Notes: generated from the sequence alone by a model not told the origin. A stretch of 43,156 nucleotides of DNA from Bacteroidota bacterium (GCA_046046005.1 JBJOKQ010000003.1:1-43156), one strand, 5' to 3'. Positions 28,726 through 43,156 are shown, counted from the first letter of the stretch. A program made the numbers and translations.

Positions 28726-29421
28726 CTATGCTTCGATTCTCTGATAATTTTTCACCCACTCATACCCCGCCACATTCATCATGATCAGAAGCATGCCGTA
28801 GAACAAATCTTCGAACGGAATTGTAAGCATGCGTACGCCGAGATTCTCATCGTCGTTGTACCACACAACAGGTGACTCAAGTCCGGTGCCGGTGAGAATT
28901 CCGTTAGAGAGCAGGAAAAACGGAATCACCGCGATGTAGCTGAGAATGAAAATGCGAAGTCGCTTTACATTGCGCCACGCAAGTATGAGCAGCAATGCGG
29001 CGTTGGAAAATGCGGTGAAAGCCGTGTAAGCTTTGTGGCTGAAAATGATTCCCGCAACGAGAAACAGCAGTGCTGAAATCAATAGAATTGCACGCGCATT
29101 TTGCCACTCCGGATTTTTAAAGAACAGTCGGAAACAGTGATATGTGAATACGCACGAATATGGAATGCAGATGAAAAACAGAATTTCCTCCAGCGGAAGA
29201 TTGTAAATGAAAATTCCTGTGACGTATTGCGGATTGAATCCCCAAACGCCGGCTTTGGTGAACGCAGCATCCCATACCAAAAAGAAAAGTGGTGTGATGA
29301 GTCCGGGCAGCCAGAGATATTTCCATTCGCGGTGAAAGCGAAGCTTCGGATGGAAAGAAAAAAGAAACGGAACTAAAATGCAGCCGAGATCAACAAGCAG
29401 GTAGGTGAGGTGCGGATTCAT
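28726..29421 (-). CDS. Lycopene cyclase, membrane CrtYcd fusion type
   Basis: Two cyclase halves with PLEEILFF and PFEDLFY; WDAAFT..GVWGFN; NGILTG; last gene of the crt run. Confidence 0.85.
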   Translation of the reverse strand: MNPHLTYLLVDLGCILVPFLFSFHPKLRFHREWKYLWLPGLITPLFFLVWDAAFTKAGVWGFNPQYVTGIFIYNLPLEEILFFICIPYSCVFTYHCFRLFFKNPEWQNARAILLISALLFLVAGIIFSHKAYTAFTAFSNAALLLILAWRNVKRLRIFILSYIAVIPFFLLSNGILTGTGLESPVVWYNDDENLGVRMLTIPFEDLFYGMLLIMMNVAGYEWVKNYQRIEA

Positions 29422-29422
29422 T

Positions 29423-29881
29423 TCACTGCTGGGATTTCAGCGCATCTTTAAAATAGCGAACGGGAACCCAAAGCATGCCGAAGCATTCTCCTTCTTCTTT
29501 ACCAAGATGCTTGTGATGCACTTTGTGCGCTTTGCGAATAGCACGCACATAGAAATTGCTGCTGCGTGTAAACAGTTTGATGCGCTGATGAATGATGATT
29601 TCATGCACCACGAAATATGCAAAACCGTAAGCGGTAATTCCGATTCCGATGAAGAGCATGTACCATTTCGCGGGATCATTCACACCGAACCAGATTAACG
29701 CCATTGCAGGAAGTGCGAAGATCACAAAGAACAAATCATTCTTTTCAAACACACCGTAACCCGGCTGATGATGATCTTCATGCAGTAACCATAAAAATCC
29801 GTGCATGACAAATTTATGCGTCAGCCATGTTACGCATTCCATGAGGATAAATGTTCCAAGTACGATGGCAAATCCTGTCAT
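29423..29881 (-). CDS. crtZ: Beta-carotene hydroxylase
   Basis: Start moved to ATG 29881 (ATGA overlap with idi). HKFVMHG, HEDHH, FEKND, HEIIIHQR, HKVHH, ECFGML. Confidence 0.92.
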   Translation of the reverse strand: MTGFAIVLGTFILMECVTWLTHKFVMHGFLWLLHEDHHQPGYGVFEKNDLFFVIFALPAMALIWFGVNDPAKWYMLFIGIGITAYGFAYFVVHEIIIHQRIKLFTRSSNFYVRAIRKAHKVHHKHLGKEEGECFGMLWVPVRYFKDALKSQQ

Positions 29882-30399
29882 GCTACGATGGTCTGCGGAG
29901 TAAGATTGGGATAAATCATGCGGAACCACACAGTGAACAACTCCGGATTATCCCGCAGTTCAAGAGCGATATCTTCTTCGCAAATGTATTCCCATGCTTC
30001 CACTTCATCAGGATTCGGTGCAGGCAAAGCATCGCTGATTCCTGTGAATACGTGATCGAACTCGTGCTCTGTCAAACCGTTCTCCAGTTCCGCTTTGTAT
30101 GTAAAATCGAATGCATGAACAAGATTGCATGTCATTCCCATTTCTTCCTGCAAACGGCGCATTGCTGCTTCACGCGCATCCTCGCCCGGACGCGGATGAC
30201 TGCAACAGGTGTTAGTCCACAAACCGGCAGAGTGATATTTTCCCGCTGCACGTTTGTGCATGAGCAATTCACCTTTGGAGTTGTAGATGAAAACAGAAAT
30301 GGCGCGATGAAGTTTCCCGGAGCGATGTGCTTCCATCTTCTCCATTACACCGGTTTCGTTGTTTTTTTCGTCAACAAGAACTACGTATTCGTTCTGCAT
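29878..30399 (-). CDS. idi: Isopentenyl-diphosphate delta-isomerase type 1
   Basis: LHRAISVF, WTNTCCSHP, RRLQEEMG, EHEFDHVF. Confidence 0.95.
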   Translation of the reverse strand: MQNEYVVLVDEKNNETGVMEKMEAHRSGKLHRAISVFIYNSKGELLMHKRAAGKYHSAGLWTNTCCSHPRPGEDAREAAMRRLQEEMGMTCNLVHAFDFTYKAELENGLTEHEFDHVFTGISDALPAPNPDEVEAWEYICEEDIALELRDNPELFTVWFRMIYPNLTPQTIVA

Positions 30400-30428
30400 G
30401 GCTGTGTAAGTTACGAATGATTAATGGA

Positions 30429-31265
30429 TCAGAACATGCGCATGCTATGACGGAAATAGGATGTGGCAAGCAATCCCATTTTACGGTAATTCGGAATACG
30501 CACGCGTTGCGTCATAATCTGCACAGGGCTTACAGAGCGGATTTTACTGAAAAGCTGACGATAGTACACGTAGGCTACATAAACACCGAAGCGAGAACTG
30601 GTCGGGAGTTTGCGAATGCCTTCGAGCGCAGCATCAAAGTCTGCTTCAATATCTTTTTCCACCTGAGCCTTCACGTCAGCATTGAATTGCGACATGTTTA
30701 CACCCGGGAAGTAAATTCTTCCAAGAACATGGTAATCGCTTTTCATGTCGCGGAGGAAATTCACCTTCTGGAATGCGGCACCTAAGCGCATTGCAGCCGG
30801 CTTCAGTTCGCGATACATCGCATCGTTGTTTTCAGTGAACACGCGAAGGCACATAAGGCCTACAACTTCAGCAGAGCCAACAATGTATTCTTTGTATGAA
30901 TCTTCAGAGTGGCGCGACTGATCGAGATCCATCTCCATACTCTTAAGAAACGTATCTATCAATTCCCATTCGATGTTGTACTTGTGTACCGTTGCCTGAA
31001 AACTATTCAGCACCGGGTTGAGACTGATTTTACGTTCGAGCGCTTTCACGGTTTCGCTGCGGAATTCCGCCATGAGCACTTCACGATCGTAGTCGAGAAA
31101 CGAATCCACAATTTCATCGGCGAAGCGCACAAAACCGTAGATGTTGTAAATCGGCTCGTGCAATCGCTCATTCAAACAGTAAATGCCAAGAGAGAAACTT
31201 GTACTGTAAGCTCTCGTGGTTTTTTTACTGATCTCAGAAGAAATCCGGTCAAACAATTGTTTCAT
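30429..31265 (-). CDS. crtB: Phytoene synthase
   Basis: Start moved to ATG 31265. YSTSFS, YGFVRFADEIVD, YIVGSAEVVGLMC, FQKVNFLRD, GRIYFP. Confidence 0.93.
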   Translation of the reverse strand: MKQLFDRISSEISKKTTRAYSTSFSLGIYCLNERLHEPIYNIYGFVRFADEIVDSFLDYDREVLMAEFRSETVKALERKISLNPVLNSFQATVHKYNIEWELIDTFLKSMEMDLDQSRHSEDSYKEYIVGSAEVVGLMCLRVFTENNDAMYRELKPAAMRLGAAFQKVNFLRDMKSDYHVLGRIYFPGVNMSQFNADVKAQVEKDIEADFDAALEGIRKLPTSSRFGVYVAYVYYRQLFSKIRSVSPVQIMTQRVRIPNYRKMGLLATSYFRHSMRMF

Positions 31266-32742
31266 GGTAGCGGGATTGTAATTGTTTATGAATTTCACTT
31301 GCGGCAATTTCTCCTGAAATCAATGCAGGAGGAATTCCCGGACCCGGAACGGTGAGCTGTCCGGCGTAAAACAGATTTTCAACTTTGCGGTTACGCAATG
31401 ATGGTTTCAACACTGCGGTTTGTGATAATGTATTTGCGAGTCCGTAAGCGTTGCCTCCGTAAGCATTGTAATCGTTAACGAAATCGCGGATGCAATAACT
31501 GCGATTGTAAACAATATCATTTACGAAGGAAGTACCTGTGAAGGATTCCATTCGTGAAATGATCATGTCGAAATACTTTTTGCGAGTTGCGTCGGAATCT
31601 TCGAGACCCGTTGCAACAGGAATCAATATGAAAAGATTTTCGGAACCGACAGGAGCAACAGAAGGGTCTGTTTTCGAAGGACAACACACATAAAAGAGCG
31701 GATTTTCAGGCCACTCCGGAGTTTGATATATTTCTCTTGCGTGCTGATCCAGATCTGCATCGAAAAATAAATTGTGGTGATGCAGTCGATCGATTTTCTT
31801 CGAAACGCCTAAGTAGAAAATCAAACACGAAGGAGCGAATACTTTATTCTTCCAATAAGTTTCGCTGTAATTGGCGAATTCCTTTCCGAGAAGAACCTGT
31901 TCTGTATGGTGATAATCTGCAGATGAGATGATGCCATCGGTTTTCAAATCCACACCGTTCACATTCAATGAAACTGCGCGCTTGTTACGCACATTAATGC
32001 GTTTCACTTCAGCATCTGTTTGAATTTCGACACCGAGTTCTTTCGCCAACGATGCCATTCCCTGAATGATGTTGTGCATGCCGCCCATAGGATACCATGT
32101 TCCCATGTCCAACGCAGCGTAATTCATCAATGTATAAAGTGCCGGAATCTGTTGCGGCATTGCTCCTAGAAACAGCACCGGAAATTCCATGAGTGCAATG
32201 AGTCGCGGATCTTTGAAATATCTGCGAACATAAGAACGCACGCTTTTGAATACGTGACTTCCTGCTACACCGCGCAGCACATCATAGTTCATGAACTCGA
32301 ACCAGGAATATGCCGGCTTGTAAACCAATTGCTGCATTCCCACTTCGTATTTGAACTTACCTTCTTTTAAAAACTTCTTCAGTTTTGTGCTGCTGCCCGG
32401 TTCAATCGACTCGAAAAGACTTTCGATGTCGTTCATTTCTGCGGGCACATCCACCACATCATTCTTCCCGAAAACCATTCTGAATCCCGGATCGAGTTTC
32501 ACCAATTGATAGTAATCAGAAGGTTTGCGATCGAAACGCGCGAAGAACTTCTCGAAAACATCCGGCATCCAATACCAACTCGGACCCATGTCAAAGCCGA
32601 AACCGTTATCCTCATAGAAACGGCAACGACCGCCGATCGTGCTGTTTTTTTCAAGCACGGTAACGGAGTGTCCTGCCTTTGCAGCAAAGCTGGCCGACGC
32701 CAATCCGGAAAAACCGCTTCCTATGATGGTGATTTTTGACAT
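31249..32742 (-). CDS. crtI: Phytoene desaturase
   Basis: FAD-binding IIGSGFSGL, FDMGPSWYWMPD, YNAYGGNAYGLANTL, GQLTVPGPGIPPALISG. Confidence 0.92.
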   Translation of the reverse strand: MSKITIIGSGFSGLASASFAAKAGHSVTVLEKNSTIGGRCRFYEDNGFGFDMGPSWYWMPDVFEKFFARFDRKPSDYYQLVKLDPGFRMVFGKNDVVDVPAEMNDIESLFESIEPGSSTKLKKFLKEGKFKYEVGMQQLVYKPAYSWFEFMNYDVLRGVAGSHVFKSVRSYVRRYFKDPRLIALMEFPVLFLGAMPQQIPALYTLMNYAALDMGTWYPMGGMHNIIQGMASLAKELGVEIQTDAEVKRINVRNKRAVSLNVNGVDLKTDGIISSADYHHTEQVLLGKEFANYSETYWKNKVFAPSCLIFYLGVSKKIDRLHHHNLFFDADLDQHAREIYQTPEWPENPLFYVCCPSKTDPSVAPVGSENLFILIPVATGLEDSDATRKKYFDMIISRMESFTGTSFVNDIVYNRSYCIRDFVNDYNAYGGNAYGLANTLSQTAVLKPSLRNRKVENLFYAGQLTVPGPGIPPALISGEIAASEIHKQLQSRYHETIV

Positions 32743-32781
32743 GATTAAAGATTAGACAGAATGTCTGTAGTATGTCGACTC

Positions 32782-33666
32782 TTATTGTTTAAGTATGGAC
32801 ACCAAAGAGTCAACAGAATTGCAAGGCAAAAGGTTCACTGTTTGTTTGATTTGGCGCAACATTTCATCGCGTCCTACAACAATGAGTTTCGCTTTCGGGG
32901 CGTCCTCAGCAAGTCGTCTGTATTCTTCAGGCAGATTGATTTTTTTCTTCTGCATGATATAGAATGTGACCAAATGTGTTGGCTTCACGTAAGGAAGCAT
33001 TTCGCGAATGTTGCTCAACGGAACGTTCTGTCCGAGATAAACAGTTCGCAAGCCTAAACTTCTTGCAATGTAATCGCTGAACACCAATCCGATTTCATGC
33101 CATTCGTCCGGAGGAAGGAATAAAAGAACATTCTTATCCGGAACGTGCGCCGGAGGCAAACCGTCAATCGCAGCAATCAGTTTGCGACGAATGATGCACG
33201 TTGCAAAATGCTCCTGCGTTGGCATAGCGGCATTGGTGCTCCACATTACGCCGGTCTTGTGCAGAAAAGGATACACCACATCAACCATTGTTGTGAATAT
33301 TCCGTAGCGTGTAATTACTGCCGATAAAACTTTTTCGAATTTAGTTTCATCATAAGTAAGCATCGCTGATGTCAGCTCAGTTACAAATGAAGCTTTCACT
33401 ACATCATCCGATTGCGCAGACTGCAGTGATGAAACCATTTCGTTAAGTTGGACCTCGGAATAAGATGCAACACGTGAAATTTTGTGTCCGAAATTGACCA
33501 GGGTCGAGATGTTGAGAAGCTTGCGTACCTGACTGTCATCGTAGTAACGAATGTTGGTCGCCGTTCGGAACGGCTCAATCAAGTTGTAGCGCTTTTCCCA
33601 GATGCGGATAGTGTGGGCTTTGATGCCCGTCATCTTCTCAAGATCGTTTATTTGATATCTGTTCAT
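32782..33666 (-). CDS. MerR-family B12-binding light-responsive regulator (CarH/LitR type)
   Basis: MerR HTH GIKAHTIRIWEKRY; W-x9-EH (WSTNAAMPTQEH); E-x-H-x-x-G (EWHEIG); YLGQNVP; heads the crt operon. Confidence 0.88.
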   Translation of the reverse strand: MNRYQINDLEKMTGIKAHTIRIWEKRYNLIEPFRTATNIRYYDDSQVRKLLNISTLVNFGHKISRVASYSEVQLNEMVSSLQSAQSDDVVKASFVTELTSAMLTYDETKFEKVLSAVITRYGIFTTMVDVVYPFLHKTGVMWSTNAAMPTQEHFATCIIRRKLIAAIDGLPPAHVPDKNVLLFLPPDEWHEIGLVFSDYIARSLGLRTVYLGQNVPLSNIREMLPYVKPTHLVTFYIMQKKKINLPEEYRRLAEDAPKAKLIVVGRDEMLRQIKQTVNLLPCNSVDSLVSILKQ

Positions 33667-39725: not shown

Positions 39726-40607
39726 ATGAAAGCACTTCCGTTCAAAATACCCGTAACAACACGTGAGTCGGTTGTAGTTGAAGAAGATATTCAGCCGCAT
39801 TTCTACACATACCTTCATCAACATGAGGAAGTGCAGCTCACGTGGATTTTGAAAGGCGAAGGAACGTTGCTCGCCGGAAATTACACGGGGAACTTCGGTT
39901 CCGGAGATATTTATTGGTTTGGTCCGAATCAGCCGCATGTATTTCGTTGCGACTCTGTTTACTTTCAGAATAAATCGTGGTTGAAAGCGCAATCAATATC
40001 TGTGTTCTTTCGTGTAGATGACCCTTCGCAAGGCGGGTTGCTTTCATTGCCTGAATTGGGATCGTTGCGAAAGTTTGCGGTGCGCAGTCAAGGCGGTTTC
40101 CGGATTGATCCCGAACATTATGTTGAGCTTACAGAAGCATTTCTGAAAGTTCGCGTGCAACACGGTTTAGCGCGACTCACTGCATTCATGCAATTGATCG
40201 ATCAGGTGCTCAATCACAGCAAGCACATTCCGCTTTCTGATGAACCTATCGGCATGCAGATGTCGGAGAAAGAAGGTTCGCGCATGCATTCCATTTTCGA
40301 TTACACACTGAAAAATTTCCACAAGGATATTTCAGTGACCGACGCGTCGAATGTTGTGCACATGACACCTGAAGCGTTCTGCAGATTTTTCAAAAAGCAC
40401 ACGCGTAAAACGTATGTAACGTTTCTTAATGAAATCAGAATTGAAAATGCCTGTCGTAAACTGAAAAACGGCGACGACAAACTGGTTGCAGAAATTGCTT
40501 ACTCCTGCGGATTCGGAAATGTCTCGCATTTCAATCGTGTATTCCGTAAGGTAACGGGCAAGACTCCGAAAGCCTATCAGCAGGCACAACTCGCGAGAAT
40601 GAAATAG
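39726..40607 (+). CDS. AraC family transcriptional regulator with cupin sensor domain
   Basis: LHQHEEVQLTWILKGEG and NQPHVF cupin motifs; C-terminal AFCRFFKKHT...IAYSCGFGNVSHFNRVFRKVTGKTPKAY. Confidence 0.95.
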   Translation: MKALPFKIPVTTRESVVVEEDIQPHFYTYLHQHEEVQLTWILKGEGTLLAGNYTGNFGSGDIYWFGPNQPHVFRCDSVYFQNKSWLKAQSISVFFRVDDPSQGGLLSLPELGSLRKFAVRSQGGFRIDPEHYVELTEAFLKVRVQHGLARLTAFMQLIDQVLNHSKHIPLSDEPIGMQMSEKEGSRMHSIFDYTLKNFHKDISVTDASNVVHMTPEAFCRFFKKHTRKTYVTFLNEIRIENACRKLKNGDDKLVAEIAYSCGFGNVSHFNRVFRKVTGKTPKAYQQAQLARMK

Positions 40608-40651: not shown

Positions 40652-40659
40652 TAACTTTG
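40652..40659 (+). promoter_or_regulatory. Bacteroidota -7 element for the dlt-like operon
   Basis: TAACTTTG, 27 nt before ATG 40687. Confidence 0.55.
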
Positions 40660-40686: not shown

Positions 40687-40929
40687 ATGAATAACGAAGA
40701 GATCCGTAATATCATCCGAGGTAAAGTCAAGGATCTGACCTTCGTTAATGCAACGGACGATCAATCATTGCTCAAAGCAAAACTTCTCGACTCGATTATT
40801 GTAGTTGACCTTGCAGTTGAATTGGAGCAGGAGTTCGGATTCAAAATTCCGTTCACTGAAATTACAGAAGATAATTTCGAAACGATAAGTTCCATCGCTG
40901 CTTATATTCAGTCGCGAATCACCGCATAA
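40687..40929 (+). CDS. Acyl/aminoacyl carrier protein, DltC-like
   Basis: 80 aa, acidic; phosphopantetheine site LLDSIIVVDL...ELEQEFG..IP; immediately upstream of the DltD-like gene. Confidence 0.8.
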   Translation: MNNEEIRNIIRGKVKDLTFVNATDDQSLLKAKLLDSIIVVDLAVELEQEFGFKIPFTEITEDNFETISSIAAYIQSRITA

Positions 40930-40933
40930 ACGG

Positions 40934-42169
40934 ATGAAAGATTTCCTGTTCAAACATTTGATTCCATTGTCATTGGCAATGGGAATTGCAATTGTTTTGC
41001 TGAATACAGGTTTCCGCGATTTCGCATTTCGTGAGGACAGAAGAAATCTAAAAACGCAAGAAGTAACCGGTTGGCCTGTGCGTTTGTTTCCTTCGTTGGT
41101 ACAGAATCCTTCCGACTACGAACTCTTCACCACGCATTGGTTGCAATCTGATCCGATTGTGATTTTCGGGTCTTCTGAACTTTCATACTACAATTACAAA
41201 TCCATTCCGTATCACTTCTTTTCAGAACGCGGCATTCCCTGTGCAGGAATCGGTTCCGCCGGGAATCAATGCATGAACATTATGGGTCAGCTGATGTTTC
41301 TGAAACCCCATGTCAGAAAGATGCGTGTTGTGATCATGCTTTCTCCAGGATGGTTTGAAGAATATTCGGAAGGAACGGCTCTGGAAAATTTTCTCTTCTC
41401 TCAAAACGATCACACGTTGCATTTGATGAACGGAATGAACGACTCAGAATCCATGCGGTACATTGATGCATACGTGAGTGAAAACATCAACGCAATTTCA
41501 CACCCTTCATCTGTGTTGAGTATGATGGCTTATCGTCACCGCATACATGAAGTTCCGTTAGGAGAAGTTGTTTACAGCCCGCTGTTTAATTATCACGAAC
41601 ATTTCAGTGCATACAAAGCAGACAGAATGCAATCGCTGTGGAATGCGGGCAGAAGTAATTGGTCGTACAGCAACACAACGTCACCCGATGCAACTGTGAT
41701 AGATTATCATGCGCTTGAGTTTAATTGGGACAGCGCAATCTCTGCTGAACGAAAAATGTTTCTCGAAATCAGCAACGGGAACGATCGTTCGGTGAACAAC
41801 GAATATTACGAACAGTGGTTAAAAGGAAAACCATTACATCATTTGAAAATCCGCCCGATTGCAGAGCAAAGAGAATTTGCAGATCTGAAGATGCTGTTAC
41901 AGTTTCTGAAAGAATGCGGATGCAAACCTTTGTTCGTGATGCAACCTTTCAATCCGTATTGTATGCAGAATCTGAAGGAGTTCGATCAAACCGAAAAAGA
42001 AGTGGCGCAGTTGGTGACTTCAGGCGGATTCGAATACTTCTCCCTTTACACGTCAGATAAAAAGACCTATCAACCCGGAACGTTGACGGATATACATCAC
42101 CTCGGAGAAGCAGGCTGGTACATGATCAACCGAAAAATCAACTCTTACTTTTTCGAAGACAAAAAATGA
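40934..42169 (+). CDS. dltD: DltD-like membrane-anchored SGNH-type acyltransferase
   Basis: N-terminal TM; IFGSSEL (catalytic Ser block); VVIMLSPGWF; EFADLKMLL; DIHHLGEAGW (D-x-x-H-L-G-x-x-G-W). All resemble DltD blocks. Confidence 0.8.
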   Translation: MKDFLFKHLIPLSLAMGIAIVLLNTGFRDFAFREDRRNLKTQEVTGWPVRLFPSLVQNPSDYELFTTHWLQSDPIVIFGSSELSYYNYKSIPYHFFSERGIPCAGIGSAGNQCMNIMGQLMFLKPHVRKMRVVIMLSPGWFEEYSEGTALENFLFSQNDHTLHLMNGMNDSESMRYIDAYVSENINAISHPSSVLSMMAYRHRIHEVPLGEVVYSPLFNYHEHFSAYKADRMQSLWNAGRSNWSYSNTTSPDATVIDYHALEFNWDSAISAERKMFLEISNGNDRSVNNEYYEQWLKGKPLHHLKIRPIAEQREFADLKMLLQFLKECGCKPLFVMQPFNPYCMQNLKEFDQTEKEVAQLVTSGGFEYFSLYTSDKKTYQPGTLTDIHHLGEAGWYMINRKINSYFFEDKK

Positions 42170-42300
42170 AAAAAGCGCTGTTTCATTTTCTACTCTACAC
42201 AGTTCTGATTTGCGGATTGATCTATCTGTATTATCCGTTCAACGATAATTCAGAAACGCGTCCGTCTTCACAAATTCAATTCGTATACCAGAACTTCTGA
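42166..42300 (+). CDS. dltX: DltX-like 44-aa single-TM acyl-shuttle peptide (not in ORF track)
   Basis: Hand translation: MKKALFHFLLYTVLICGLIYLYYPFNDNSETRPSSQIQFVYQNF*. ATGA overlap with the dltD stop; C-terminal F-x-Y-x-x-F like FIYNEF of DltX; 1 nt before the MBOAT start. Confidence 0.75.
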   Translation: MKKALFHFLLYTVLICGLIYLYYPFNDNSETRPSSQIQFVYQNF

Positions 42301-42301
42301 G

Positions 42302-43156
42302 ATGCTTCCGTTCACCGGCATAGATTTCTTTCTGCTCTCCGCAATATTTCTGCTGAGCGTTTATGCTGTTAAAGCAATTGCGGGCACGCGATTCCCGCTA
42401 AAATGGTTGCTGCTGTCAGGATCTTTAATCTACGTTGTGTGGTATGTGCCGCATGCAATAAGCGCTTTCGCATTTCTTACATATACTTATCTCGTTTATT
42501 ACTGTGCAGAATATGTTTTTAAATCGGAAAAGAAATGGCCGGCAGTAATTCTGTTGCTCGCTCCTATGATTCTCGTCAAAGCATCCGTAGCGGTTGATGT
42601 AATTTCTTTCACAGGACTTTCGTACATCACGTTCCGTGTTATTCAGATTTATCTCGACAATAACAGGAATGAAAAACCTGTGCGCCCCGACGATTACGCA
42701 CTGTTTATGTTTTTCACGCCAACTTTGATGATCGGTCCTATTGATCGTTTCAAAAGATTCAACGATGATGTGAAAACAGGATTCGCTTCGTTGACGATTA
42801 CAAATTTCACACAGGGTTGGGAAATGGTGTTGCTCGGCCTGGTGCAGAAGTTCGTTCTCGCGGAGGCGATTAATAGATATTTACTTTCTCCTCTGAACAC
42901 TGAAAGCACTTCATTGTCTGAAATGCTCAGCAACATGTATGTGTATGCGTTCTATTTGTATTTCGACTTTGCAGGATATTCTTCACTCGCGGCAGGTTTT
43001 GCAAAACTCATCGGAATCAATGTGCCTCAAAACTTTAACAACCCTTTTATCGCAGTCAATCCTCAGGATTTCTGGAGACGCTGGCATGCATCGCTCAGTG
43101 ATTGGCTCCGCGATTATCTGTTCCGTCCGTATTACAAATGGATTTCGGGAAAAGAA
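42302..43156 (+). CDS. dltB: DltB-like MBOAT membrane acyltransferase; 3' truncated by window edge (not in ORF track)
   Basis: Hand translation from ATG 42302: MLPFTGIDFF..., FTGLSYITFRVIQ, FFTPTLMIGPIDRFKRF, YAFYLYFDFAGYS, PQNFKQPF, DFWRRWHASLSDWLRDYLFRP. Open to the window end. Confidence 0.85.
   Translation, partial: MLPFTGIDFFLLSAIFLLSVYAVKAIAGTRFPLKWLLLSGSLIYVVWYVPHAISAFAFLTYTYLVYYCAEYVFKSEKKWPAVILLLAPMILVKASVAVDVISFTGLSYITFRVIQIYLDNNRNEKPVRPDDYALFMFFTPTLMIGPIDRFKRFNDDVKTGFASLTITNFTQGWEMVLLGLVQKFVLAEAINRYLLSPLNTESTSLSEMLSNMYVYAFYLYFDFAGYSSLAAGFAKLIGINVPQNFNNPFIAVNPQDFWRRWHASLSDWLRDYLFRPYYKWISGKE

Follow-up and report, generated by a model that had tools for sequence, protein, structure and literature searches.

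The window analysed here, a stretch of 43,156 nucleotides from an uncultured freshwater Bacteroidota bacterium (GCA_046046005.1, JBJOKQ010000003.1:1-43156), ends in four genes that in all likelihood belong to a self-contained dltC-dltD-dltX-dltB-dltA cassette. By homology, the cassette would transfer an aminoacyl group to an acceptor at the periplasmic face, and its DltB falls into a subfamily that is termed WNG here, after a Trp-Asn-Gly sequence at the site of a catalytic histidine. The Dlt pathway is the textbook Gram-positive route to a lower surface charge and to resistance against cationic peptides. Judged from its genes, the cassette is a complete dlt-type machine in a phylum where such machines are rare and uncharacterised. 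What stands out are its apparent departures from textbook Dlt at two points, the catalytic histidine in its membrane-bound O-acyltransferase (MBOAT) as well as the specificity pocket of DltA.

Four dlt-type genes at the end of the window

Four open reading frames (ORFs) are packed on the plus strand between positions 40687 and 43156, separated by 4, -4 and 1 nt. The original prediction, made from the window, had described this packing with the same coordinates and spacings and had quoted the motifs LLDS, GSSEL, DIHHLGEAGW, GLSYITFR, GPIDRF and YFDFAGYS, all of which are present in the window proteins. Its reading of the genes as a dlt-like acylation operon is supported by profile scores for the PP-binding, DltD and DltB families, which lie well above what chance would give.

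The first gene (40687-40929) encodes a carrier of 80 amino acids in the position of DltC, with its serine in the LLDS motif. It matches the PP-binding family PF00550 at 36.1 bits (E 8e-9, cut-off 20.8). The best NCBIfam model was DltC (PRK05087, 34.9 bits, cut-off 68), with AmcB (33.6 bits) and AsbD (33.0 bits) scoring about equally and all three below their cut-offs; a second DltC model gave 22.6 bits against a cut-off of 52.35. The earlier view that the carrier looks as much like a generic carrier as like DltC therefore stands.

The second gene (40934-42169) encodes a DltD-family SGNH acyltransferase of 411 amino acids. It scores 150.3 bits against PF04914 (E 1e-43, cut-off 22.7) and matches no other Pfam family at E<=1, while TIGR04092 gives 111.1 bits (cut-off 150). 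A hydrophobic stretch at residues 3-27, seen in the hydropathy profile, would serve as an N-terminal membrane anchor. The residues Gly79-Ser80-Ser81-Glu82, Asp386 and His389 are invariant in five aligned Bacteroidota DltD proteins, and Ser80 (in GSSE), Asp386 and His389 (in DIHH) form a putative catalytic triad. The best relative of solved structure is DltD 7dxm (E 1.8e-8), in which DTIHMGWKGW is aligned with DIHHLGEAGW of the window protein.

When compared with the congener G009, the window DltD is about 31% identical and DltB is 60% identical. DltD seems to evolve much faster than DltB, as might be expected if acceptors differ between lineages.

The third gene (42166-42300) encodes a DltX-like membrane microprotein of 44 amino acids. 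In DltX, the tyrosine of a C-terminal FXYXXF motif acts as an acyl shuttle that takes D-Ala from DltB and hands it to the serine of DltD (PMC12148441, PMC11035591, PMC13721041), and in other bacterial MBOATs this hexapeptide is part of the protein itself, at a C-terminus with two additional helices (PMC12148441). The small ORF has an N-terminal hydrophobic stretch at residues 1-23 (hydropathy) and ends in Phe39-Val-Tyr41-Gln-Asn-Phe44. An ORF ending in F.Y..F lies between dltD and dltB in all 23 Bacteroidota-type loci that extend past dltD (the collection of loci is described below), and Leu21, Tyr22, Phe39, Tyr41 and Phe44 are invariant among the 23 aligned copies. The Pfam DltX family PF12459 is the one most commonly matched by these copies, with weak matches in 10 of the 23 and a best E of 0.00075. 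Genome-wide, the F.Y..F ending occurs in 11 of 78,705 stop-to-stop ORFs of at least 25 amino acids, which are five other MBOATs, the DltX-like ORF and five short ORFs. After dltD in other hosts, the corresponding ends are YEYQQF (Photorhabdus), EFQYSKF (Achromobacter) and ITFIYNNF (Ileibacterium). Thus the DltX-like call made earlier on this ORF is upheld by its FVYQNF end, its hydrophobic helix and the retention of the motif in 23 of 23 homologues. Complex prediction for DltB with the DltX-like peptide gave scores of 0.16 and 0.25 (mark 0.32), with controls not run, and weighs neither way.

The five other MBOATs of the genome (C48, C66, C156, C25 and C194; 469-499 amino acids) all end in FIY..F, and these fused-motif proteins keep Trp-His-Gly (WHG) at the catalytic site. 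Five PatA/AlgI-type MBOATs with a fused motif are an unusually large set for a 3.4-Mb genome.

The fourth gene (42302-43156) comprises the first 285 of about 380 codons of a DltB-type MBOAT and is open at the end of the contig. This fragment matches LTA_dltB (TIGR04091) at 212.6 bits (E 1e-62).

The assembly break and the dltA gene

The window is the entire contig C3 of the genome (G000), whose assembly consists of 301 contigs and is 89.8% complete; dltB was therefore cut by assembly and not by biology. A 50-kb metagenome contig, L059, is collinear with C3 and with a second contig of the assembly, C182; its nucleotide identity is 92.5% over the final 6.4 kb of C3 and 93.5% over the initial 2.7 kb of C182. 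About 1.6 kb between the two contigs is absent from the genome's own assembly. The order on L059 is AraC regulator, carrier, DltD, 44-amino-acid ORF, DltB (380 amino acids) and DltA (493 amino acids), followed on the opposite strand by pth, bL25 and prs, and the same three genes, by size, are found on C182. Protein identities between the genome and L059 are 98.8% for the carrier, 92.5% for DltD, 90.9% for the small ORF and 97.5% for DltB residues 1-285.

C182 starts with the last 57 codons of an adenylation enzyme, which are 91.2% identical to the C-terminus of the L059 DltA and share its Asn-His-Lys (NHK) variant of the A10 motif. The L059 DltA scores 408.7 bits against NF003417 and 402.9 bits against TIGR01734, below the curated cut-offs of 476 and 559.85, and the adenylation enzymes of two congeners score 434.6 and 419.1 bits against NF003417. 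Contigs of three runs from other studies (X3 record 9, X4 record 17 and X8 record 27) bridge the break point from dltB into dltA, and in a possible source run a contig begins at C182's own start point. The joining of C3 and C182 by L059, together with these bridging contigs, bears out the prediction that a DltA gene lies downstream of the window: it follows dltB in L059 and in 19 related loci, and its 3' end is on C182. A full-length DltA was not found in the genome's own assembly. On this comparison the end of dltB and most of dltA are lost in the assembly gap between C3 and C182.

Other adenylation genes of the genome were considered as its own DltA and set aside. One, on C29 (265 bits to the DltA model), is part of a carrier/acyl-CoA-dehydrogenase/halogenase cluster; those on C162 (107 bits), C76 and C152 score far lower. 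In the C29 cluster (L012, 1418-9951), the N-terminal part of an 845-amino-acid ORF resembles an MBOAT (hhalign against the DltB alignment: probability 80.5%, E 1.3e-5), and its C-terminal part shows a weak resemblance to GDSL/SGNH proteins (E 0.07). This ORF is preceded by two sulfotransferases and followed by a 99-amino-acid PP-binding protein, a 476-amino-acid adenylation enzyme, an acyl-CoA dehydrogenase and a tryptophan-halogenase-like flavoenzyme. From its gene content, this cluster is a possible second carrier-dependent acyl-transfer system.

Gene order and distribution

Related loci were collected by an alignment-based pattern scan with one genome per species, which yielded 34 loci; tallies over these and other relatives are samples of non-independent genomes. 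There are 26 loci titled Bacteroidota, Bacteroidia, Bacteroidales, Flavobacteriia/-ales or Chitinophagaceae, all of them from metagenome-assembled genomes (MAGs). The others belong to Photorhabdus (4), Achromobacter (2), Ileibacterium (1) and a 'Bifidobacterium' MAG with Bacteroidota-type genes (1). A search of the contigs of named genomes with a single DltD protein as query found no relatives. The 'Bifidobacterium' locus (L034, titled uncultured Bifidobacterium sp. MAG) holds a Bacteroidota-type cassette with 53-58% identity to the proteins of G011, and its contig is probably mis-binned.

All 27 Bacteroidota-type loci begin with a carrier homologue. DltD, the small ORF, DltB and DltA follow it in this order in each of the 19 that reach dltA; the other 8 end earlier, at contig ends, and none deviates. 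All five genes have intact ORFs in 18 of the 19 complete loci. In L035 (6150-7308), the dltB match is split into two pieces that overlap, and the match to dltA begins at query residue 43; the split dltB may be due to a frameshift or to an assembly error in that MAG. Among the flanks of the 19 loci and the upstream side of the window, no gene family is common to more than 3 of the 20 regions. Since the flanking genes are not conserved, the five genes behave as a self-contained cassette. The non-canonical C-D-X-B order noted in the original prediction is thus real and extends to C-D-X-B-A, but it is not unique to Bacteroidota, as it occurs in Photorhabdus too.

In the Ileibacterium MAG (Firmicutes; L056/L057), a DltD-like gene is followed by the DltX-like ORF ending in ITFIYNNF, with DltA (545.9 bits) at a distance of about 9 kb on that contig. 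Non-canonical dlt layouts thus exist in Firmicutes as well.

The cassette has a patchy distribution. Of 24 other genomes in the genus, 4 have the DltD-like gene, which was found in none of the 16 other families sampled in the class; a Pfam DltD match was obtained in a single one of 400 further genomes that sample the phylum. While dlt genes are known in a few Gram-negatives (PMC5541007, PMC3544676), a literature search for dlt genes in Bacteroidota, which did not target the replacement of the DltB histidine described below, yielded one relevant item. This is an annotation table that lists dltA-D in three Parabacteroides distasonis strains without characterising them (PMC12996385). Annotated dltA-D are therefore in print for the phylum, although the locus is uncharacterised in that source.

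A DltB subfamily with asparagine at the catalytic histidine site

In DltB, His336 is described as an invariant and required active residue and as the universal histidine of MBOATs (PMC11035591, PMC12148441). The dltB fragment of the window ends before this site, and its replacement by Asn was thus not visible to the original prediction.

The L059 DltB, at 380 amino acids, ends in GRCPLL without a fused FxYxxF motif, and TIGR04091 is its only NCBIfam match (258.9 bits, cut-off 375). Its best solved relative is Streptococcus thermophilus DltB 6bug (E 4.9e-47), and this alignment provided the Firmicute reference. Two other candidates for a reference were discarded: the ORF beside the Ileibacterium dltA is not an MBOAT, and an Achromobacter ORF picked by position did not align. 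In the alignment with 6bug, Trp309-Asn310-Gly311 (WNG) stands opposite Trp335-His336-Gly337, Ser opposite Tyr345, and His330-Asn331 opposite Asn356-Asp357. The equivalent of His289 is kept as His262 in FWRRWH, which lies inside the window.

His262, Trp309-Asn310-Gly311 and His330-Asn331 are invariant in 18 aligned Bacteroidota DltBs (L059 and 17 others), which are only 38-60% identical to the L059 protein and have about 60 other invariant positions. WNG is also found in two Photorhabdus DltBs. A search of 1.84 billion representatives in a protein library with DltB gave 20,473 hits at E<=1e-3 and 719 at E<=1e-30. Of the best 150 hits, 31 have WNG at the His336 site, including nearly all of the top 30; the remainder are canonical DltB-like (WHG and Tyr) or AlgI/PatA-like (WHG and Trp, often with a fused FxYxxF). 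In the 32 WNG-type sequences (query included), Tyr345 is replaced by Ser, and the 356 site is His in 21, Tyr in 10 and Gln in 1. A FastTree phylogeny of 138 sequences that cover the region (50% clustering, midpoint root, 13 sequences dropped for low coverage) places 28 WNG tips and one WWG sequence in a clade with a support of 0.999. With WNG fixed in Bacteroidota and Photorhabdus and in a clade of its own, the cassette belongs to a distinct DltB subfamily. A Gram-negative-type DltB clade without the histidine that is held to be essential in all MBOATs bears on the catalytic model of the superfamily.

Three members of the clade (P0009, P0014 and P0019) are about 600 amino acids long, with a C-terminal extension of about 220 amino acids that has no Pfam match.

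The DltA pocket and the cargo

For the adenylation enzymes of the relatives, Bacillus subtilis DltA 3e7w is the best single-domain match of solved structure (317.5 bits), and DltA models lead generic adenylation domains by more than 100 bits. The Asp of motif A4, equivalent to the Asp197 that binds the alpha-amino group in DltA (PMC4176424), and the Lys of motif A10 are kept in these enzymes and in L059. In canonical DltA the methyl group of D-Ala is held in a Leu/Met/Cys cavity, and the Cys (Cys269) is a major determinant of selection for D over L (PMC8972799, PMC4176424). The pocket is treated here as three cavity positions, which were located through sequence motifs and not through a structure.

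Among the 18 Bacteroidota-type DltAs, the residue at the Cys site is Met (11), Ile (3), Cys (3) or Ala (1). The Leu site is Val or Ile in most of them, and the Met/Phe site is Cys, Val, Ser, Tyr, Gly or Ile. The canonical trio of Leu, Phe/Tyr and Cys is kept in the Firmicute reference (545.9 bits to TIGR01734), in both Photorhabdus enzymes and in three Bacteroidota loci, and the difference is thus a matter of real variation inside the family. Instead of NGK, the A10 motif reads [NS][HY]K in L059, in the stub on C182 and in 14 of the 17 full-length enzymes.

Judged from these features, the cargo should be an alpha-amino acid whose side chain is small and aliphatic; it may be D-Ala or something close to it, but D-Ala cannot be assumed. 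The original prediction had hinted that the cargo might not be D-Ala, and the departure of the pocket from that of D-Ala-specific enzymes lends weight to this. The machine might thus work as proposed here and still differ from D-alanylation, with L-Ala, Gly, D-Ser or a slightly larger aliphatic residue as its cargo. In favour of such a cargo, the D-selecting Cys is absent from 15 of the 18 Bacteroidota-type DltAs and from L059, the Leu site is altered in most of the 18, and the Met/Phe site varies. On the other hand, DltA models remain the best by more than 100 bits over generic adenylation domains, the pocket has kept its small size and aliphatic character, and L-Ala could still be shut out by a larger side chain at the Cys site. 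A cargo other than D-Ala is a serious contender, if not one that we would favour. The variation of the D-Ala pocket within the clade suggests a family of related envelope aminoacylations and not a single one.

Proposed mechanism

The cassette reading assigns a step to each of the five proteins, with chemical steps, topology, cargo and acceptor taken by homology from the observed gene content, order, motifs, conservation and family relationships. In the cytoplasm, the DltA-type enzyme would adenylate a small alpha-amino acid and load it as a thioester on the 80-amino-acid carrier. The DltB-type MBOAT would then move the aminoacyl group through the inner membrane and onto Tyr41 of the DltX-like peptide. 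From Tyr41, the group would be taken by the anchored, periplasm-facing DltD-type SGNH enzyme (Ser80/Asp386/His389) and esterified to a hydroxyl of the acceptor at the inner membrane.

Several observations weigh against this reading. In L059 and its relatives, Asn replaces the His that is regarded as invariant and as necessary for DltB activity, which means that the textbook DltB mechanism cannot simply be assumed. Relocation of the catalytic His (Asn356 to His), at least in a simple form, is a doubtful explanation, since 11 of the 32 WNG-type sequences have Tyr or Gln at this site. The cavity of the L059 DltA is changed at all three positions (Leu to Ile, Met/Phe to Ile and Cys to Leu; FDISLI...FILLGE). 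All equivalog cut-offs are missed (DltC 34.9 against 68, DltD 111.1 against 150, DltB 258.9 against 375 and DltA 402.9 against 559.85), and the window's own 44-amino-acid ORF matches no profile, PF12459 included. For the Asn-bearing part of dltB and almost the whole of dltA, the sequence is that of L059, a proxy of 92-94% identity, and not that of the genome's own assembly. Lastly, no acceptor pathway was found: the flanks are not conserved, and TagF-type genes were not found in the five dlt-positive genomes, two of which are less than 80% complete.

As regards the missing His, the retained His262 is probably the more likely base, so that catalysis would rely on the equivalent of His289. A more specific proposal can be built on this, namely a WNG-type, largely diderm form of Dlt. 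Here the MBOAT would work through the His289 equivalent together with the Asn, like the Asn...His of eukaryotic MBOATs, DltA would be retuned away from D-Ala, and the aminoacylated product would be lipopolysaccharide (LPS) or another outer-membrane component. If true, this would be an envelope modification not yet described for Bacteroidota, but as a whole the proposal is tentative and its combination of features rather doubtful.

The acceptor

The original prediction had looked to an acceptor other than teichoic acid, and this view is strengthened by a search for TagF-type enzymes (PF04464; LtaS-type synthases were not searched), which gave no match for any of the genus's five dlt-positive genomes (71-99% complete) and a match in 1 of 41 genomes overall. 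The controls B. subtilis, Lactococcus lactis and Bacteroides thetaiotaomicron were matched. In other Gram-negatives with Dlt homologues, the acceptor is likewise elusive: in Dickeya the modified substrate 'remains to be identified' (PMC3544676), and in Bordetella an unidentified acceptor in the outer membrane is described (PMC9410548). If the DltD domain sits on the periplasmic side of the inner membrane, as predicted, the acceptor would be LPS or another lipid-linked glycan that has yet to be exported, a lipid head group or a protein. Our guess is LPS, lipooligosaccharide or another lipid-linked glycan, and not a classical teichoic acid made by TagF.

The acceptor could instead be a membrane lipid or a protein and not a glycan polymer, for example a lipid whose head group is aminoacylated, or a protein of the outer membrane as has been suggested for Bordetella. 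This would fit with the lack of glycan-synthesis genes linked to the cassette in any compared locus, with the absence of a detected TagF-type polymerase, and with the lipid density that was seen near the DltB active site by cryo-electron microscopy (PMC11035591). The absence of linked genes, though, fits any constitutive envelope component equally well, LPS included. It also counts against a lipid or protein that, to our knowledge, DltD-family enzymes are known only with lipoteichoic acid as acceptor. On balance such an acceptor seems unlikely.

Inactive remnant or O-acetylation system

Another explanation is that the genes are what is left of a dlt operon gained by horizontal transfer and now decaying or inactive, with a DltB that lacks its catalytic His and nothing being transferred. 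The Asn at the site of an invariant and required His (PMC11035591, PMC12148441), the patchy occurrence in the genus and in the phylum sample (4 of 24 and 1 of 400) and the split dltB match in L035 could all be read in this way. Decay, in contrast, would hardly leave the Asn invariant in 18 DltBs as divergent as 38-60% identity to L059, in a clade with 0.999 support, nor five intact ORFs in 18 of 19 complete loci, nor a locus kept at more than 90% protein identity between the MAG and L059. Moreover, Photorhabdus has the same WNG type, and P. luminescens is named among the dlt-holding Gram-negatives in a paper that reports a polymyxin-sensitive dltB mutant of Dickeya (PMC3544676), whose own DltB need not be of the WNG type. 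A remnant is therefore very improbable.

Ordinary O-acetylation of a polysaccharide or of peptidoglycan in the manner of AlgI/AlgJ or PatA/PatB, with acetyl-CoA as donor and the carrier incidental, has hardly any credibility left: MBOAT-SGNH pairs are common in Gram-negatives, there are five other such MBOATs in this genome and the DltB and DltD equivalog cut-offs are not reached, but the SGNH partner matches Pfam DltD alone, the DltB model gives 212 bits over 285 amino acids against 130-163 bits for the five full-length other MBOATs, the MBOAT lacks the two extra helices and the fused FxYxxF while a separate DltX-like peptide bears the motif, and the carrier and a DltA-type enzyme are fixed in all 19 loci that reach dltA. 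The signs by which the original prediction would have recognised such a system, i.e. an MBOAT grouping with AlgI/PatA, a better AlgJ/PatB score for the 411-amino-acid protein and no adenylation enzyme nearby, were looked for and none was found.

Relationship to known systems

The closest counterpart of the cassette is dltXABCD of Firmicutes such as B. subtilis, Staphylococcus aureus and S. thermophilus (DltA 3e7w/3dhv, DltB 6bug/8jem, DltD 7dxm/3bma), which has the same five components and provides the best family or structure match for every part, by a small margin in the case of the carrier. Both have an adenylation enzyme, a phosphopantetheine carrier, an MBOAT without a fused shuttle motif, an FxYxxF microprotein, and an anchored SGNH protein with GSSE and DxxH. 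They differ in gene order, which is C-D-X-B-A here and X-A-B-C-D in Firmicutes, and in DltB, where the cassette has Asn for His336 and Ser for Tyr345. In DltA, Cys269 is absent from most cassette members (Leu in this lineage) and the A10 motif has NHK or SHK for NGK. Furthermore, the host of the cassette is a diderm, and no TagF-type enzyme was found in the dlt-positive genomes of its genus.

Photorhabdus shares the C-D-small ORF-B-A order, the WNG/HN signature of DltB and the DltB clade. However, identity to the cassette proteins is only 27-40%, its DltA keeps a Leu/Tyr/Cys pocket, and its shuttle motif starts with Tyr. Among Enterobacterales, dlt genes of Dickeya and Pectobacterium also figure in the literature; Dickeya is described with a dltBAC operon and a separate dltD (PMC3544676). 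In Achromobacter (Bordetella dra-type), also a diderm, two genomes have a DltD-like gene followed by the small ORF ending in EFQYSKF, but identity to the cassette is about 25%, and the other cassette genes were not detected with Bacteroidota queries. The PatA/PatB and AlgI/AlgJ systems follow the same relay logic from MBOAT to Tyr to SGNH enzyme (PMC12148441); they differ in using acetyl-CoA as donor with neither carrier nor adenylation enzyme, in having FxYxxF fused on extra helices, and in keeping WHG. Being phylogenetically distant, compact and without linked genes, the cassette offers a test case for what Dlt homologues modify in Gram-negatives.

Other features of the window

Upstream of the carrier gene is an AraC-family regulator with a cupin and an HTH_18 domain (39726-40607, plus strand; Pfam HTH_18 76.7 bits, HTH_AraC 50.7 bits). 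It is 99.7% identical in L059, where it has the same position, and is a possible local regulator outside the conserved cassette. Between the two genes lies the element TAACTTTG (40652-40659, plus strand), 35 nt before the carrier ATG, which is also found at -35 in L059. It fits TAnnTTTG, the -7 promoter consensus of the Bacteroidota type. In 16 of the 28 loci, this motif is present in the 150 nt upstream of the carrier gene, compared with 456 of 5600 (8%) random 150-nt windows from the same loci.

Near-identical copies of 40687-43156 (at least half of the sampled words) were found in freshwater, freshwater-sediment, aquatic, activated-sludge and wastewater metagenomes from six studies, with the possible source excluded; no RNA data set was found among the runs with such copies. 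As the organism recurs in freshwater and activated-sludge metagenomes, the modification may matter there against cationic antimicrobials or for surface properties.

The rest of the window contains housekeeping genes, including those for glycyl-tRNA synthetase and ribonucleotide reductase, as well as carotenoid genes. A protein with a sorting tail of the type IX secretion system fits the assignment to Bacteroidota. The carotenoid cluster (28726-33666, minus strand) encodes a lycopene cyclase, a phytoene synthase and a desaturase-type amine oxidase, and lies beside a MerR-type regulator with a B12-binding domain, an arrangement that suggests light-regulated pigment synthesis.

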